DNA of 54,932 nt from a virus. Lineage: Duplodnaviria > Heunggongvirae > Uroviricota > Caudoviricetes. Below are positions 25,381 to 42,768 of the stretch, piece after piece. The notes under the pieces were generated by a model. The model saw only the letters and a program-made list of their open reading frames with translations. It was not told where the DNA came from and did not search any database. Each line of letters begins with the position of its first letter. Within the stretch, counting starts at the first letter, position 1. Made by a program: the position numbers and the translations under genes. The stretch lies in the IMG/VR virus record IMGVR_UViG_2939147180_000006, positions 1 to 54,932 of that record, one strand, 5' to 3'.

Positions 25381-26865
25381 TTAAAATCCGCGCAGGCGCT
25401 TCGGTAACATGAGGCCCATCGCCTGTGGCTGGCTTAGTTCGGTGATACCCCATACCATTGCATCCATACGGTCAGGGGATTTTTTAGCGGTAGCTGGCAC
25501 GTATTCCATCATTTGATTTTCCAGCGTGTACAGGCTGCCAGTGTGGGCCACCCTTCCTTGTGCATACAGTGCTGATATTGGTTCAGCGCGGGCGAATTTA
25601 CCTTTACTTGCGTGCACCTTAACAATGCGGCCTTTGAATCCGGCATTACGCAAAGTGGCCTCTGCCATTTCGCCGCCCTGGTTGGTTTCGATAACTATCG
25701 CGTCAGCTTCATGGATGTTGTAGGCGTTCATTGATGCCTGCGCCCAGTCGTTAGGTGACATGCGTCCTGAGTAGTCACCGTCTACAGAATACTGAGCATT
25801 CTTGCCGCCACCATAGGCGGAACACGCTATGATCCCCGTTTCGTCCGACTCATCAGATGATGTTGTCGCAGGGTCAATAGCTATTACAGTGCGTATTTTC
25901 TCCTGCGTTATCTGCATCCGGTGCGCGGCTGTTATCATCGCCTCTGTCCACAACGCACCCTCTTCATCGAATTTGCGCGGGCGCTGCATGTACTGGGCCT
26001 CAAATGACCTTCTGTGTGCCTTCAATCCAGCTTCATGGGCGTCATTGTGCTTTTTAGGCCACAGCCAGCCGTCTGGCAGATTGTGAGGAATAGGGATAGC
26101 GAACTCGTTTTCAGGGTACAGATCCCAGTAGTCCAGACTGTTATCAATCTTCACTGGCAGGTTCAGGTGATGCCATTTCTCACCGCTCCCACCTCGTAGC
26201 AGGTAGCCGGACAAATCATCGTAGTGGATGCGCTGCATAATGACGATAACAGGCGTTGTTTGCACTGCCAGACGTGAAGCAAGCGTGTCGTTATAGTTAG
26301 TGTTAACCTGCTTTCTCACCACGTCAGAATAAGCGTCAGCGGGTTTTAATGGGTCGTCAATGATTAACGCGCCGTTAAATCCCGGTTCCATATACCCTGC
26401 ACGGAACCCAGTAACCTGACCAAGCGATGACGTTGCATACACGCCGCCACCGTATTCAGTCCACCACATTGATTTTGAGTTTGCATCGTTGCGGATCCTC
26501 ATGGGCCACATTGCCTGATATTCAGGCGTACAGATCATGTTTCTTACGGTCGAGGAATTGAGTAACGCCAGGTTGTTGGAATAGGAGACATGAAGGAATC
26601 GTGTGCGGGGATTTATTGCGAGTGACCGCGCCATCATGTTGATAGTTGCGATCATGGTTTTGCCGTACCCTGGAGGGATGTTAATGATGAGTCTGGTTAT
26701 CTCACCATTGACAACGCGTTGCAGTGCGTCGCGGATAGCTAAGTGATGGCCTGAGATTAACATCTTCGTTCCGTTCGCTTGCTTATAGAAGTAGCGATTG
26801 AAAAACAGGCCATCGTTTTCACATTTGGACTGAATAACTCGTTCTTTGATTGTCAGCATAATCAC
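25381..26865 (-). CDS. terL: Terminase large subunit
   Basis: 494 aa; Walker-A-like NIPPGYGKT; acidic nuclease-type C-terminal motifs; downstream of small subunit. Confidence 0.85.
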   Translation of the reverse strand: MIMLTIKERVIQSKCENDGLFFNRYFYKQANGTKMLISGHHLAIRDALQRVVNGEITRLIINIPPGYGKTMIATINMMARSLAINPRTRFLHVSYSNNLALLNSSTVRNMICTPEYQAMWPMRIRNDANSKSMWWTEYGGGVYATSSLGQVTGFRAGYMEPGFNGALIIDDPLKPADAYSDVVRKQVNTNYNDTLASRLAVQTTPVIVIMQRIHYDDLSGYLLRGGSGEKWHHLNLPVKIDNSLDYWDLYPENEFAIPIPHNLPDGWLWPKKHNDAHEAGLKAHRRSFEAQYMQRPRKFDEEGALWTEAMITAAHRMQITQEKIRTVIAIDPATTSSDESDETGIIACSAYGGGKNAQYSVDGDYSGRMSPNDWAQASMNAYNIHEADAIVIETNQGGEMAEATLRNAGFKGRIVKVHASKGKFARAEPISALYAQGRVAHTGSLYTLENQMMEYVPATAKKSPDRMDAMVWGITELSQPQAMGLMLPKRLRGF

Positions 26866-27347
26866 ACCTCATCTTCTACTTCCTGAACGATGCGGGCGAT
26901 CTCTTCTTTTGTGACTTCTACCTGTACTGGTGCTTCTTCCCTGTTGCCTACGATTTCCTGCGTAACGCGTTCGCCATACTTACGCGGTTGCAGTTTTGCC
27001 AATAGCCATTTACGGGTTTCAATCATCAAATGATGTCTGTTTAACTCTTCCTTTTTGATGTTTTCTGGCGCGTCAGCAAGGTCGATGATTTCATCAGCTA
27101 ACACCTCAAATCCGATCTCCTTCGCGCGCATATACATGTCCGAAAACTCTGGCACGTCACGGAACCATTTAAGGATTGTTGAACGCGCAGGCATACCAGG
27201 CATCTTCGAAATCTTGTTAATACTTTCGCCGTCCGACACCAGCTCGCAGATCTCCAATGCCTTTTCTTCTGAATAGCCATGTGGACGGCCCGTCTTTTTG
27301 GCTGCTGGCTTTTTGTCTTCAGCCTTTGCCTTTTTAGTGCGGGCCAT
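26862..27347 (-). CDS. terS: Terminase small subunit
   Basis: Start trimmed to MARTKKAKAED; HTH-like N-terminal domain; 4-nt overlap with terL. Confidence 0.75.
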   Translation of the reverse strand: MARTKKAKAEDKKPAAKKTGRPHGYSEEKALEICELVSDGESINKISKMPGMPARSTILKWFRDVPEFSDMYMRAKEIGFEVLADEIIDLADAPENIKKEELNRHHLMIETRKWLLAKLQPRKYGERVTQEIVGNREEAPVQVEVTKEEIARIVQEVEDEV

Positions 27348-27451
27348 AATCTCACCTCTTAATATTTGTTGATGATATATACGCAAGCCACAAAACTTGC
27401 GCAATATGTTAATACTTCCAACCAGTCGAATAATTCTTTCATCTTTTCACC

Positions 27452-27520
27452 TTACTGCGACAAGGCCGCCATAGTGAGAACAATCGCGACAATCAGGAAA
27501 AAGAAATCAAGCCATTTCAT
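27452..27520 (-). CDS. Tiny hydrophobic peptide (22 aa) MKWLDFFFLIVAIVLTMAALSQ
   Basis: Manually translated; AGGAG RBS; member of tandem array. Confidence 0.35.
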   Translation of the reverse strand: MKWLDFFFLIVAIVLTMAALSQ

Positions 27521-27537
27521 TTTTAAACTCCTGCGAT

Positions 27538-27609
27538 TCAGTTAACACTTAAAAGAACCGCAACGATGACGATCACTATAATCATGCAAAAGAAGTCTGC
27601 TTCTCTCAT
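27538..27609 (-). CDS. Tiny hydrophobic peptide (23 aa) MREADFFCMIIVIVIVAVLLSVN
   Basis: Manually translated; GAGGG RBS; ATGA overlap with upstream peptide. Confidence 0.35.
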   Translation of the reverse strand: MREADFFCMIIVIVIVAVLLSVN

Positions 27610-27686
27610 CTTTTTAACCCTCGATAAAAATCAACAGCAATGACTACAACTACAGCCACCAGCAATAGCATTTCGTATGCGTTCAT
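27606..27686 (-). CDS. Tiny hydrophobic peptide (26 aa) MNAYEMLLLVAVVVVIAVDFYRGLKR
   Basis: Manually translated; ATGA stop-start overlaps on both sides. Confidence 0.35.
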   Translation of the reverse strand: MNAYEMLLLVAVVVVIAVDFYRGLKR

Positions 27687-27781
27687 TTGATGCTACCCAT
27701 AATAAGGCCGATGATGATAATTATGGCGACAGTGCCTAACATCATTCCGCACATAATCGCCATCAGTTCGAATATATCCAT
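27683..27781 (-). CDS. Tiny hydrophobic peptide (32 aa) MDIFELMAIMCGMMLGTVAIIIIIGLIMGSIK
   Basis: C-terminal part of table ORF 27683..27886; AGGTGA RBS before the internal ATG. Confidence 0.4.
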   Translation of the reverse strand: MDIFELMAIMCGMMLGTVAIIIIIGLIMGSIK

Positions 27782-27789
27782 GCCGTCAC

Positions 27790-27864
27790 CTATACAACAT
27801 TCTTCAACCACAGATACATGATGACGGCGAACGTTGAGCACCATATGAGATCGTAAATATCCAT
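27790..27864 (-). CDS. Tiny hydrophobic peptide (24 aa) MDIYDLIWCSTFAVIMYLWLKNVV
   Basis: Manually translated; weakest member of the array. Confidence 0.25.
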   Translation of the reverse strand: MDIYDLIWCSTFAVIMYLWLKNVV

Positions 27865-27875
27865 TGTGAACACCT

Positions 27876-27950
27876 TCAGCTTTCAATGAATATCATGATC
27901 GCCAGCCATACAGCGACGCATAAGGAAAGGATAACGAGCGGGTCAATCAT
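27876..27950 (-). CDS. Tiny hydrophobic peptide (24 aa) MIDPLVILSLCVAVWLAIMIFIES
   Basis: Manually translated; overlaps upstream peptide stop by 8 nt. Confidence 0.35.
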   Translation of the reverse strand: MIDPLVILSLCVAVWLAIMIFIES

Positions 27951-28059
27951 GCTGCCCCTCCACCCAGTGCTTGATCTTTGCGTTTATTAGTGCAACTGCA
28001 ATAAAACCCACCAGGAATACAGAAACACCGATCAATCCGGCTATTACATAAGCGTCCAT
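27943..28059 (-). CDS. Small membrane peptide (38 aa) MDAYVIAGLIGVSVFLVGFIAVALINAKIKHWVEGQHD
   Basis: Manually translated; GGGGGTGA RBS; starts 2 nt after the HExxH-protein stop. Confidence 0.4.
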   Translation of the reverse strand: MDAYVIAGLIGVSVFLVGFIAVALINAKIKHWVEGQHD

Positions 28060-28061
28060 AA

Positions 28062-28646
28062 TCACCCCCGCTTAAAGCTCATAACACGCGGTACAAGCGC
28101 TTCTTTTGCTTTAGGCTTACGTTTGCCTTTCTTAGCTGGTTTTTTCTCTTCTTTCGGCTCCTCTGCCTGTTCAACTGCCTGTTCTGCTGATTTAGTAGCC
28201 TTTTCCGCCTGGTCTAATGCCTTCTCTACGACTTCAGCCGCCTGCATTGCTGCAACCTGTGCTTCGTTTGATTCAGCCAGGATTGGGAAGAATGCGTCAA
28301 AGATGCGGCCTACCATGTAAGCATATGTCTCGTTTGCCGGATGAGTTGGATCAGTGGTTGCCACGACACCTACATCGCTTAGAACGTGGAATGTAGTGTG
28401 GGCCGCTTCATGTACCAGTGTTCCTAACTCATTGTCGAATACTGCGATCACATAGAAATTACCGCCTTTCTCACCAGTACAAGTAAGCGTTAATCCTCCT
28501 GCCAGTTCGAAATCAGGTTCGATTGGAATCCCTGCCTTTTCGCAAAATTCATAGAACATGTCGCGGGTCGGGCAAAAGAAAACGGTTGTATGCTCAAAAA
28601 GCGGAATCTTGAATTGAGGCAACTTAATGCCTTTAGCCTTAGCCAT
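28062..28646 (-). CDS. Hypothetical protein with HExxH motif and Lys/Glu-rich C-terminal tail
   Basis: 194 aa; LVHEAAHTTFH (HExxH, zinc-metallopeptidase-like) then AEKATKSAEQAVEQAEEPKEEKKPAKKGKRKPKAK. Confidence 0.5.
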   Translation of the reverse strand: MAKAKGIKLPQFKIPLFEHTTVFFCPTRDMFYEFCEKAGIPIEPDFELAGGLTLTCTGEKGGNFYVIAVFDNELGTLVHEAAHTTFHVLSDVGVVATTDPTHPANETYAYMVGRIFDAFFPILAESNEAQVAAMQAAEVVEKALDQAEKATKSAEQAVEQAEEPKEEKKPAKKGKRKPKAKEALVPRVMSFKRG

Positions 28647-28924: not shown

Positions 28925-29413
28925 TTATTCTTTGCGTAAGCACTGCGTTTTGATGTAGTCCTGTAACCCAGTGATCTGAGCGTCTTTCGTTTTTAGTTGT
29001 TCTCTGAGGGATAGATAAGCCGATTCAGCGTCGGGAGTGAGTCTACAGGTGGCTCCATCAATGGCGCTGGCGGATCCGGTGGGGTCGGACAATCGCACAG
29101 GTGTTGCGTTGACGCGCAACCGGATAGTACCGTTATCAATGCCAGTGCGCAGATCGGCAATGTCAGATCTGATAGCTTTAATCTCATCGTGATACCTCTT
29201 ATCAAGTTTTGACAGTTCGGCGTTTCGCTCCTTCATCTGCTGAATAGTGTTACTTGCTGTCTTTAGTGCGCCCTGAGTGGTCGTTAACTCTTCCTGTAAC
29301 CTTGTTGCCTCACTCTGGTAATGGCACGTTACGGCGGTAAGGCTGGCAATAATGCAAACAACAGCGGCGATAATTAACGCCTTCACCTTGTCCACGTTTC
29401 CCCCCATTCGCAA
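28925..29413 (-). CDS. Rz: i-spanin (Rz-like)
   Basis: N-terminal TM anchor [14 protein letters not shown], coiled-coil periplasmic domain; directly after endolysin; Rz1 embedded in +1 frame. Confidence 0.8.
28993..29187 (-). CDS. Rz1: o-spanin (Rz1-like lipoprotein) embedded within Rz
   Basis: [24 protein letters not shown] lipobox followed by Pro-rich [17 protein letters not shown]; start trimmed from table ORF. Confidence 0.75.
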   Translation of the reverse strand: MRLKLSDLTLPICALALITVLSGCASTQHLCDCPTPPDPPAPLMEPPVDSLPTLNRLIYPSENN

Positions 29414-29877
29414 ACGGCATATTCAACCTCGCGGCGGTTAACCAGACCATGCCACTTTTTGCCGCCAGCGTATACCCAGCGTTTAAGCTGTGCGCACGCT
29501 TCTGATTTCTTGCCGTCATTGAGTAGCTTTAATAAGGTTGATGTTTTGAAGTTGGTTGCGCCTACGTTATAGGCGAATGAATAAAGTGCTGCGCGGGTAA
29601 AATCTGATATTTCGACTTTAATATATGGGTCAATCGCTTTTGCGGTCTTGTGTAGATCTTTATTTAACAAAGCATCGCATTCTGATTGCGTGTAAGTCTT
29701 CCCAAGCATGATGTCTTTTCCGGTGTGACCGTAGCAAACAGTCCATACACCAACAACATCACGATATGGATCGTGTTCCACGCCCTCTAATGGCTTAATC
29801 ATCACAGCCGCTATAGCGATTGCCCCACCAGCCGCCGCCGCAACAATCTTGTTTTTCAGCGATTGGCTAATCATATT
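29383..29877 (-). CDS. R: SAR endolysin (T4-lysozyme fold, phage 21 R-like)
   Basis: Start trimmed to MISQSLK; Gly/Ala-rich SAR segment [17 protein letters not shown]; catalytic E-D-T pattern [23 protein letters not shown]; close resemblance to R21 from memory. Confidence 0.85.
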
Positions 29878-30076
29878 ACTTATTCCCCATTCGTGCGTCG
29901 TGTTCCTCTTGCGCCCGCTTGTTCTCCTGTGATTTGAAGTAATAATTAACGGCAAATGTGCCTATGGTTGATAAGATACCCACAAAGACGGCAATGTCAT
30001 TGATGGTTATCGCGCCGAAAAAAGCGGTTACGGCCCCGGTCACATACGCACACGCCTCCCGTATTCTGTCGAACAT
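29876..30076 (-). CDS. S: Class II holin (pinholin, S21-like)
   Basis: 66 aa, two TM segments, charged C-terminus; GGAGG RBS; ATGA overlap with endolysin; table start at 30109 lies in the terminator. Confidence 0.75.
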
Positions 30077-30360: not shown

Positions 30361-30542
30361 AGTTCACCAAGTTTAAACAGTTCGCCTTTATCAACGTATC
30401 GCTCAATATCTTCCCTTGTTGTTTTGATGAATGGCTCTGCATATTCCTCCCCACCATCTACACTAATTGTTACAGTATCGCCTTCAACCATGTAAAATAC
30501 GTTTTCCATCAGGTTTACACCATAGATACCGTCTTCAATCAT
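30357..30542 (-). CDS. Hypothetical protein (61 aa)
   Basis: Track ORF; MIEDGIYGVNLMENVFYMVEGD N-terminus similar to the downstream paralog. Confidence 0.4.
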   Translation of the reverse strand: MIEDGIYGVNLMENVFYMVEGDTVTISVDGGEEYAEPFIKTTREDIERYVDKGELFKLGEL

Positions 30543-30775
30543 TTCTTGCGCTCCTTAATAGCTCGCTTGATCTGCTCTACCGTAGCATCGAAGAAAGCGA
30601 GAAACATAACTACAGGCCATAAAGGAATCTCAAGGCCACCAGGTTTAGCACCGCTAAACTTAATAAAACATGACATCAGGATCGCGCCAGCGATATAAAG
30701 CAAAACAATCACAGCAATAAGGCATTCAATCATAATCATCCTCATCGTCTTCGTGTTCAGCCAGGAACTCATCAA
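30539..30775 (-). CDS. Hypothetical membrane protein (78 aa, two TM)
   Basis: Track ORF; hydrophobic segments; 4-nt overlap with neighbour. Confidence 0.4.
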   Translation of the reverse strand: MMSSWLNTKTMRMIMIECLIAVIVLLYIAGAILMSCFIKFSGAKPGGLEIPLWPVVMFLAFFDATVEQIKRAIKERKK

Positions 30776-42274: not shown

Positions 42275-42537
42275 ACGCCGTACATCCCATTAAGTCCGGC
42301 GAATAATTTCCGCCAGTGGTCTTCAACATAAGCCCGGAACGGCTTAACGCGAACATTGCGTGCCTTCAGTTCAATCTTGTCAAAGAAACGCGGCTCTATA
42401 ATTGTTCCGTCCAGGTATTTAACCAGGATCGGGCGCTCAAGATCATTAAATGTCTTATTCAGCACGACCAGGCCAGGGTCACTACGATACTCAGGCAAAA
42501 CAACAAGATCGCCATCTTTTGCATTCCAAGTAATCAT
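42265..42537 (-). CDS. Hypothetical protein (90 aa)
   Basis: Track ORF; ATG at 42537 (table start at 42540 is a GTG codon). Confidence 0.4.
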   Translation of the reverse strand: MITWNAKDGDLVVLPEYRSDPGLVVLNKTFNDLERPILVKYLDGTIIEPRFFDKIELKARNVRVKPFRAYVEDHWRKLFAGLNGMYGVWL

Positions 42538-42653
42538 CACATCACCCCGCCGATATAGCTAATAATTGCCGCAGTAGCGCCAGCCATTACCACCATGAAG
42601 ACGAAAGCGACCACGCAGAAAACAGCCCTTACAGTATTTTTATCGACTCGCAT
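42537..42653 (-). CDS. Small hydrophobic peptide (38 aa) MRVDKNTVRAVFCVVAFVFMVVMAGATAAIISYIGGVM
   Basis: Manually translated; stop overlaps the next gene's start. Confidence 0.3.
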   Translation of the reverse strand: MRVDKNTVRAVFCVVAFVFMVVMAGATAAIISYIGGVM

Positions 42654-42660
42654 ATAAGCC

Positions 42661-42768
42661 TCACATGTCAGTAATCAGCTTAACAATCGCCACAGTGATA
42701 TAAAGTGACGCACTAAGGTAAACAGCCGCCACAGCAACAAATGCGGCTAACATTGCAATCTTTTTCAT
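42661..42768 (-). CDS. Small hydrophobic peptide (35 aa) MKKIAMLAAFVAVAAVYLSASLYITVAIVKLITDM
   Basis: Manually translated; ATGA overlap with the upstream gene stop. Confidence 0.3.
   Translation of the reverse strand: MKKIAMLAAFVAVAAVYLSASLYITVAIVKLITDM

Follow-up and report, generated by a model that had tools for sequence, protein, structure and literature searches.

What does a run of tiny hydrophobic open reading frames (ORFs) do directly in front of the terminase genes of a temperate phage, and are these ORFs genes at all? The question is raised by IMG/VR record IMGVR_UViG_2939147180_000006, whose 54,932 nucleotides (nt) form the window analysed here and are a complete genome of the mEp021/mEpimmI group, temperate siphoviruses of Escherichia coli. 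On the minus strand of this genome, the space between a gene for a protein of 194 amino acids (aa) and the gene for the terminase small subunit, TerS, is occupied by a tandem array of such ORFs. A preliminary description of the locus had listed seven minus-strand ORFs of 22-38 aa at 27452-28059, and these exist exactly as claimed (peptides A to G); the array nevertheless has eight members, as a further ORF, peptide H, lies just beyond them at 27359-27442. That description is borne out in part: real, linked genes for single-helix peptides are present, while its count and its placement of the array beside the lysis cassette need correction and its analogy with a cos site is weak. Comparison of the locus among relatives firmly supports a tandem arrangement of genuine micro-genes that are linked in translation, their peptide sequences kept by purifying selection.

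Coding signals and selection in the array

The array opens with peptide A (38 aa, MDAYVIAGLIGVSVFLVGFIAVALINAKIKHWVEGQHD), encoded at 27943..28059 and read from 28059 to 27943, whose start lies 2 nt past the stop codon of the 194-aa gene and whose Shine-Dalgarno (SD) duplex has an energy of -9.9 kcal/mol. Peptide B (24 aa, MIDPLVILSLCVAVWLAIMIFIES; 27876..27950) overlaps A by 8 nt (ATGATTGA) and is followed by peptide C (24 aa, MDIYDLIWCSTFAVIMYLWLKNVV; 27790..27864) and peptide D (32 aa, MDIFELMAIMCGMMLGTVAIIIIIGLIMGSIK; 27683..27781). Peptide E (26 aa, MNAYEMLLLVAVVVVIAVDFYRGLKR; 27606..27686) and peptide F (23 aa, MREADFFCMIIVIVIVAVLLSVN; 27538..27609) are each joined to the preceding gene by an ATGA stop-start overlap. 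Peptide G (22 aa, MKWLDFFFLIVAIVLTMAALSQ; 27452..27520) and peptide H (27 aa, MKELFDWLEVLTYCASFVACVYIINKY; 27359..27442) complete the series, H standing directly before TerS with its stop 11 nt ahead of the TerS ATG (27347). ATGA overlaps, which had been ascribed to several junctions, are confined to D/E and E/F, with the 8-nt overlap found instead at A/B; the other neighbours are 8-17 nt apart.

An individual ribosome-binding site (RBS) had been proposed for most of these ORFs, and an SD-like element is found ahead of all eight starts, with anti-SD duplex energies between -3.7 and -9.9 kcal/mol, whereas the background, taken at random positions, averages -2.3. Thymine occupies 54% of the second codon positions, and high second-position thymine is a signature of hydrophobic coding. 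The 701-nt array region contains eight hydrophobic ORFs of at least 20 aa that begin with ATG, all on one strand. In 2000 dinucleotide-preserving shuffles of this region the number of such ORFs never exceeded four, and 1013 of the shuffles contained none, so the view that the pattern is unlikely to arise by chance is upheld. Other 701-nt segments of the genome, on either strand, never hold more than three, and the opposite strand of the array holds none.

The relatives in which the reading frames could be followed comprise seven sequenced phages, eight E. coli prophages and 46 IMG/VR contigs. The prophages were taken from 34 genomes with a match among 5426 complete E. coli genomes, and the array region of the present phage is 88-92% identical to that of mEp044, mEp013, mEp554, mEp010, mEp021, mEp515, and MagusPhagus. 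A total of 62 loci were compared, together with two more distant contigs (L062 and L063) whose 194-aa protein is 59-60% identical, giving 64 in all. All 64 have tiny hydrophobic ORFs lined up in the interval from the 194-aa gene to TerS, on the strand of these genes, and in most loci the run takes up 75-100% of that gap.

Within the 62 loci, about 545 ORF copies are intact, and internal stops and frameshifts are entirely absent. Only three independent losses of a start codon or an ORF were encountered: family J with ACG (one haplotype, shared by five loci), family C with ATA (L050), and a fragment of family U (L016). Segregating sites fall at codon positions 1, 2, and 3 in the ratio 143:98:256 (chi-square 80, p = 4e-18). 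The pooled ratio of non-synonymous to synonymous polymorphism (pN/pS) is 0.27 in the annotated frame, compared with 0.97 and 1.28 in the two shifted frames. Family by family it ranges from 0.13 to 0.37, while family Q, with two copies, shows no non-synonymous difference; in the same loci the flanking genes give 0.17 (TerS) and 0.10 (the 194-aa gene). Loss of the frames among syntenic relatives had been named as the outcome that would speak against the genes; the frames are kept in 64 loci with a pN/pS of 0.27, and the peptides themselves are under purifying selection.

The individual members differ in how widely they are distributed. Family A occurs in most loci, with C-terminal variants of 31-38 aa, and peptide B is intact in 59 of the 62 (pN/pS 0.31). 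Peptide C has 41 intact copies besides its single start-codon loss, peptide D has 29 copies (pN/pS 0.15), peptide E is found in 61 loci, and peptide G has 58 copies (pN/pS 0.13). Peptide H is the sole member present in every locus, in 62 of 62 and also in L062 and L063, and it is the most constrained: its main allele has a pS of 0.262 and a pN of 0.015, and contigs in which the flanking 194-aa protein has diverged to 59% identity still encode the identical peptide.

As for expression, a scan for promoters and terminators found promoter-like signal at no more than the chance level and nothing within the array that exceeded it. The coding strand has no promoter-like site between TerS and Rz, the nearest gene of the lysis cassette, and relatives have an annotated terminator following Rz. 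The array's opposite strand bears a single weak promoter-like site, no more than chance would give. As no coding-strand promoter-like site lies between Rz and TerS, the array is most likely read within the late transcript, and late co-expression with the packaging genes is probable from these signals.

Turnover and transfer of the micro-genes

About 20 peptide families, of 20-47 aa, make up the arrays of the group. Their order is collinear, with differences in presence and absence, and can be written as [O/Q/T][N][A][P/M][B][C/U][R][D][E][F][G][I][J][K][L][H]. Each of the 62 loci carries between 3 and 12 ORFs, L063 carries 2, and the length of the array extends from about 210 to about 1160 nt. 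The 62 loci display 36 architectures, with junctions of -8, -4, or +2 to +18 nt, and the ABCDEFGH architecture of the present phage is shared by three loci.

Several families are related to one another. Local alignment of the families against 300 shuffles yielded z-scores of 11.3 for M/E, 9.3 for C/U, 9.2 for F/K, 6.4 for F/G, 6.0 for G/K, and 5.2 for M/C, so that peptide C is paralogous to families M and U, peptide E to family M, and peptide F to families K and G. At the DNA level, weak repeats can still be seen, F matching G at 76% over 29 nt and C matching D at 80% over 20 nt, and many families share the 5' pattern ATG-RAY-NNN-TWY-GAW. The boundaries of ORF E illustrate how members come and go: it is preceded by the 3' end of D where D is present, by the spacer and SD of D where D is absent, and by the spacer and SD of C where both C and D are absent. 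Turnover of the array is firmly supported by these comparisons, and its gains and losses occur in register, an outcome expected of unequal recombination between tandem paralogues with similar 5' ends. According to this model, paralogous micro-genes would arise by tandem duplication and would then be gained, lost, and swapped in register through recombination between their 5' ends, which would explain both the survival of the ORFs through turnover and the many combinations of 2-12 micro-genes carried by relatives.

At least one member has also crossed between phage lineages. When the consensus sequences of all families were compared by tblastn with 50,697 phage genomes, the only match outside the group was to peptide O (29 aa), which is absent from the present phage and begins the array in loci L049, L050, and L059. 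Its homologue is found in about 90 rV5-like (Vequintavirus) genomes. In phage JeffSchatz (L111 2495-2590) it is an intact ORF of 29 codons, bas55_0158, annotated as hypothetical, and it stands as a lone tiny ORF amid unrelated small genes with no array around it. The DNA common to both lineages amounts to 114 nt at 92% identity and covers the RBS and the ORF only. Transfer of a single micro-gene between the temperate siphovirus group and virulent rV5-like myoviruses, in at least one inter-lineage event, is firmly supported by this match. That an unrelated virulent phage has kept O as a lone micro-gene speaks for an autonomous function at the level of the O product.

The O homologue is also carried by three records labelled as Campylobacter phages, MG065684.1 (A138, 35 kb), MG065654.1, and MG065666.1 (C15 and A12a, 135 kb). 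C15 and A12a also match E. coli Vequintavirus genomes in size. The A138, C15, and A12a records may be mislabelled or contaminant genomes.

In Sf6-like phages, which possess the next-closest TerS at 40% identity, the slot contains ordinary soluble small genes and no array. A search based on TerS found no wider relatives among species-representative genomes, and the corresponding search of viral contigs returned largely the same contigs as the search with the 194-aa gene.

Predicted membrane topology and candidate roles

Each of the peptides A-H has an uncharged hydrophobic core of 15-27 residues, in line with the single transmembrane helix per ORF that had been predicted. The plan is common to all 20 families: a single uncharged core of 15-30 residues is flanked by short tails at the N- and C-terminal ends, and a 15-residue Kyte-Doolittle window reaches at least 1.9 in nearly all copies. 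The N-terminal tail is net negative in most families, with D or E exactly at residue 5 in 10 of the 20 (M-x-x-x-[D/E]-hydrophobic) and one position later, at residue 6, in a further two, whereas the C-terminal tail is neutral or basic except in families B and Q. GxxxG motifs are present in families D, N, and O, and peptide D has two of them. By the positive-inside rule, and by comparison with the Pf3 coat and other small phage coat proteins that insert independently of Sec, the products are probably single-pass inner-membrane peptides, mostly oriented N-out/C-in.

The best reading, and one reasonably likely to be correct, is that the array encodes microproteins that are expressed late, cross the inner membrane once, and make up a rapidly evolving accessory set of membrane-directed modulators outside the core functions of lysis and packaging. 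The peptides would insert in the E. coli inner membrane, mostly N-out/C-in, and each may bind a host or phage membrane protein helix to helix and modulate it. Such partner binding is favoured by the members being individually dispensable and highly variable, by the working of peptide O in a different phage background, and by a lysis cassette that is already complete. It would resemble the action of the small inner-membrane regulators of bacteria (KdpF, AcrZ, MgrB, MgtS, CydX, and PmrR), which likewise have 20-50 residues, one helix, and short polar ends, and which act by binding larger membrane proteins. The array peptides differ from these regulators in showing no significant homology to them and in their organisation, with 2-12 paralogues in a phage late operon in contrast to single genes beside the gene of the partner. 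A match between peptide A and KdpF was considered and rejected, as it reached E = 0.057 and 13.5 bits against an NCBIfam cut-off of 56; BLASTP aligned only seven residues, including the ALINA motif, which is not conserved among the variants of A.

Several points weigh against this reading. The partner-binding mode is an analogy with bacterial small membrane proteins, and the partner is hypothetical. The topology follows from a rule of thumb; a number of the cores are short, at 15-17 residues, and in families F, G, K, and H position 2 is taken by a basic residue. Peptide H, universal and strongly conserved, may have a core role unlike that of the variable members, for example in TerS expression. 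The pooled pN/pS combines all haplotype pairs, which are phylogenetically non-independent and subject to frequent recombination, with the shifted frames serving as an internal control. Finally, the literature search returned no experimental data on these ORFs, including on a translation product or ribosome occupancy, and they are not mentioned in the publication on the phage group (PMC11893012).

A bolder version of this idea, itself unlikely, holds that the array is an arsenal generated by recombination, in which each helix of about 25 residues is a separate effector that disables or hijacks a different inner-membrane protein, as a membrane-phase counterpart of anti-defence islands. The candidate targets would be a membrane-anchored defence effector, a transporter, a protease, or the phage's own holin, and new specificities would come from in-register unequal crossing-over and from the exchange of micro-genes of about 100 nt between unrelated phages. 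Moron and anti-defence islands similarly contain lineage-specific small genes that vary in presence and are exchanged between unrelated phages. They differ in that the array members are all paralogous transmembrane peptides (20-47 aa), turned over in register within one operon in a slot between core genes. None of the peptides matches an anti-phage defence model in PADLOC. If true, such an arsenal would at present be invisible to genome annotation.

It is rather improbable that the peptides act as modulators of the lysis clock, advancing or delaying the triggering of the holin and the release of the membrane-tethered lysozyme, whether through contact with the holin or through an effect on the proton-motive force, with copy number as a rheostat of lysis time. 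The cassette in question lies on the minus strand and comprises a class II holin of 66 aa (about 29876-30076; PF16080), a lysozyme (29383-29874; PF00959) with an N-terminal Ala/Gly-rich hydrophobic segment of about 28 residues, Rz (28925-29413; PF03245), and Rz1, a lipoprotein ORF embedded in Rz (28993-29187). The holin, weakly similar to that of phage 21, and the lysozyme suggest lysis of the pinholin and signal-anchor-release type. The array is located about 0.9 kb downstream of these genes in the same orientation, and its copy number of 2-12 would fit a quantitative trait. The hydrophobic N-terminus of the lysozyme is typical of signal-anchor-release enzymes, the release of which depends on membrane energisation, as in phages 21 and P1. 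The peptides also share with holins, antiholins, and pinholins their nature as small phage membrane proteins encoded near lysis genes and expressed late.

The case for a lysis clock is weakened by the distance in organisation and sequence. The array had been placed between the lysis cassette and TerS, and although it does fill the slot next to TerS, it does not adjoin the cassette directly, as the 194-aa gene (28062-28646) and a terminator-like gap lie between. The peptides are shorter than any characterised holin and match no holin or antiholin family, whether in Pfam or PHROGs, and the cassette, with its own holin, is already complete without them. Moreover, O stands alone in rV5-like phages, away from any identified lysis gene. 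A separate ORF of 78 aa with hydrophobic segments is located upstream of the holin (30539-30775, minus strand) and has no Pfam match.

Superinfection exclusion, in which peptides in the inner membrane would stop the entry of competitor DNA, has only a slim likelihood. Known exclusion proteins such as T4 Imm, P22 SieA, and lactococcal Sie2009 are small inner-membrane proteins, and high gene turnover combined with horizontal transfer is typical of conflict genes. Nevertheless, expression from a repressed prophage is not expected because the strand of the array has no promoter-like site ahead of it, and exclusion would bring little benefit late in the lytic cycle. The exclusion factors demonstrated for this group are a repressor and a lipoprotein (PMC11893012).

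An equally slim likelihood applies to membrane-depolarising toxins of the type I kind (Hok/Gef, Ibs, Ldr, ShoB, and TisB) that would kill or arrest the host. The size of 22-38 aa and the single hydrophobic helix match these toxins, some of which are tandemly repeated at E. coli loci, and such peptides are commonly toxic when overproduced. In contrast, the type I toxin families found no counterpart among the peptides at E <= 1 in Pfam or NCBIfam. The micro-genes stand back to back in an essential late-gene operon with shared translation signals, as units of about 85 nt at most 18 nt apart, which leaves little room for an individual promoter and antisense RNA gene; on the opposite strand, promoter-like sites occur no more often than by chance, and Rfam contains no matching small RNA. 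Early depolarisation would also trigger the holin prematurely, at the cost of burst size.

The selection data make it unlikely that the peptide products are irrelevant, a proposal with slimmer odds still than exclusion or toxicity, in which the ORFs would serve only as a chain of translational coupling or spacing that sets ribosome delivery to TerS, or would be neutral de novo ORFs in a T-rich spacer. The tight packing, the ATGA overlaps, the last stop 11 nt from the TerS start, and the lower G+C content of the array (41%, against 46% for the genome) would suit this proposal, as would the ease with which hydrophobic micro-ORFs arise in AT-rich intergenic DNA (PMC11188072). It is opposed by purifying selection, which acts on every family whereas both shifted frames look neutral, by an SD element for each ORF, and by the retention of a single micro-gene in an unrelated phage without a terminase nearby.

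A non-coding element with incidental ORFs, such as a cos or pac packaging site or a structured RNA, is highly improbable for the same reason of selection: lambda-like phages do carry cos just upstream of their terminase genes, but TerS here is of the Sf6 headful type, Rfam gave no significant family (the sole match being a sub-threshold S15 leader at E = 0.53), the array varies widely in length among relatives, and its substitutions have three-base periodicity. The Sf6-type TerS (PF20901), which belongs to a headful/pac packaging family, likewise leaves the likeness to the cos slot of lambda and phage 21, drawn in the preliminary description, a weak one.

Among other known systems, pVII and pIX of filamentous phages (33 and 32 aa) offer a parallel as adjacent coupled genes for hydrophobic proteins of about 30 residues that insert in the inner membrane without a signal peptide. 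They differ as virion components of a non-tailed phage that are single-copy, invariable, and dissimilar in sequence, whereas the phage with the array is a siphovirus (PMC11893012). The cryptic microproteome of Enterobacteriaceae (PMC11188072) is comparable as a set of hydrophobic, unannotated ORFs of 15-70 codons under purifying selection; that survey makes no mention of prophages, terminase, or tandem arrangement, while here an entire gap of 700 nt is a dense array.

Annotation and neighbouring genes

The array has largely escaped annotation. No peptide gave a meaningful match in Pfam, PHROGs, NCBIfam, or PADLOC, which agrees with the earlier impression that they are not Hok/Gef, holin, or antiholin homologues. 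Exact look-up in a collection of 15 billion proteins recovered only D and L, unnamed or labelled hypothetical, and the tested peptides of fewer than 30 aa were absent; a protein search with L, the longest at 47 aa, found only relatives of at least 70% identity, all unnamed or hypothetical. In RefSeq records of the eight E. coli prophages (L008-L015), annotated with PGAP, the array of 0.75-1.0 kb is almost unannotated, the only call being one ORF in one prophage. Records based on PHANOTATE call three to six of the array ORFs, some of them extended. Searches of the literature on mEp021, on phage small membrane proteins, and with the peptide strings found no description of the array, and none of the literature searched describes paralogous peptides of 20-47 residues organised as a reshuffling array of 2-12 members.

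Small hydrophobic phage ORFs are usually dismissed or left unannotated, and a stretch of 0.3-1.2 kb is nearly blank in RefSeq prophages. The array combines gene-like purifying selection, an N-terminal signature, cassette turnover, and the transfer of one gene of 29 codons. If its peptides target membrane proteins, they would constitute a ready-made library of natural transmembrane binders, and the locus would also serve as a model for the birth and diversification of micro-genes. The phage group grows on E. coli K-12, so that function is directly testable, and mEpimmI phages have been reported to be as prevalent as lambdoid phages in human faecal samples (PMC11893012).

On the minus strand the genes of the region follow the order holin, lysozyme, Rz/Rz1, a gap of 278 nt, the 194-aa gene, the eight tiny ORFs, TerS, and the terminase large subunit, TerL. 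TerS, of the Sf6 type, is encoded at 26862..27347 (PF20901, 3.3e-36; phrog_1482, 4e-49), and TerL at 25381..26865 (PF17289, Terminase_6C). In most of the eight prophages, PGAP names the Sf6-type TerS as 'DNA-binding protein' or 'hypothetical protein'.

The 194-aa gene (28062..28646), directly upstream of the array, encodes a product predicted to be zincin-like. Residues H79, E80, H83, H87, and E106 are invariant among its relatives, and the protein consists of an N-terminal domain with an HExxH motif followed by a long helix and a basic tail. The AlphaFold2 (AF2) model has a mean predicted local distance difference test (pLDDT) score of 71.6, with values of 80-88 for nearly all of residues 21-150, and contains strands at 21-25, 51-57, and 63-69 and helices at 28-38, 74-91, and 104-161. 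The hallmarks of zincins can be recognised in it, as HExxH lies on a helix, the Glu on the next helix (which begins near E106), and three strands and an N-terminal helix come before. A core with this order of elements has been described for the zincin-like metallopeptidases of phage polyvalent proteins (PMC5512222), and one homologue with 59% identity is named zincin-like metallopeptidase in nr.

In relatives, the module is interrupted by HNH endonuclease genes at three points, namely where the 194-aa gene meets the array, at the TerS/TerL junction, and at the lysozyme/Rz junction (L005 998-1483; L063 5250-5753; L062 2752-3273). In mEp013, such a gene separates the 194-aa gene from the array. 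In L062, an intein is recorded in a Mu F-like (PF04233) protein encoded beside the portal gene. Elsewhere in the present genome, a second and much smaller cluster of hydrophobic micro-ORFs is seen in the early region, where two adjacent single-helix ORFs of 38 and 35 aa lie on the minus strand at 42537-42653 and 42661-42768.

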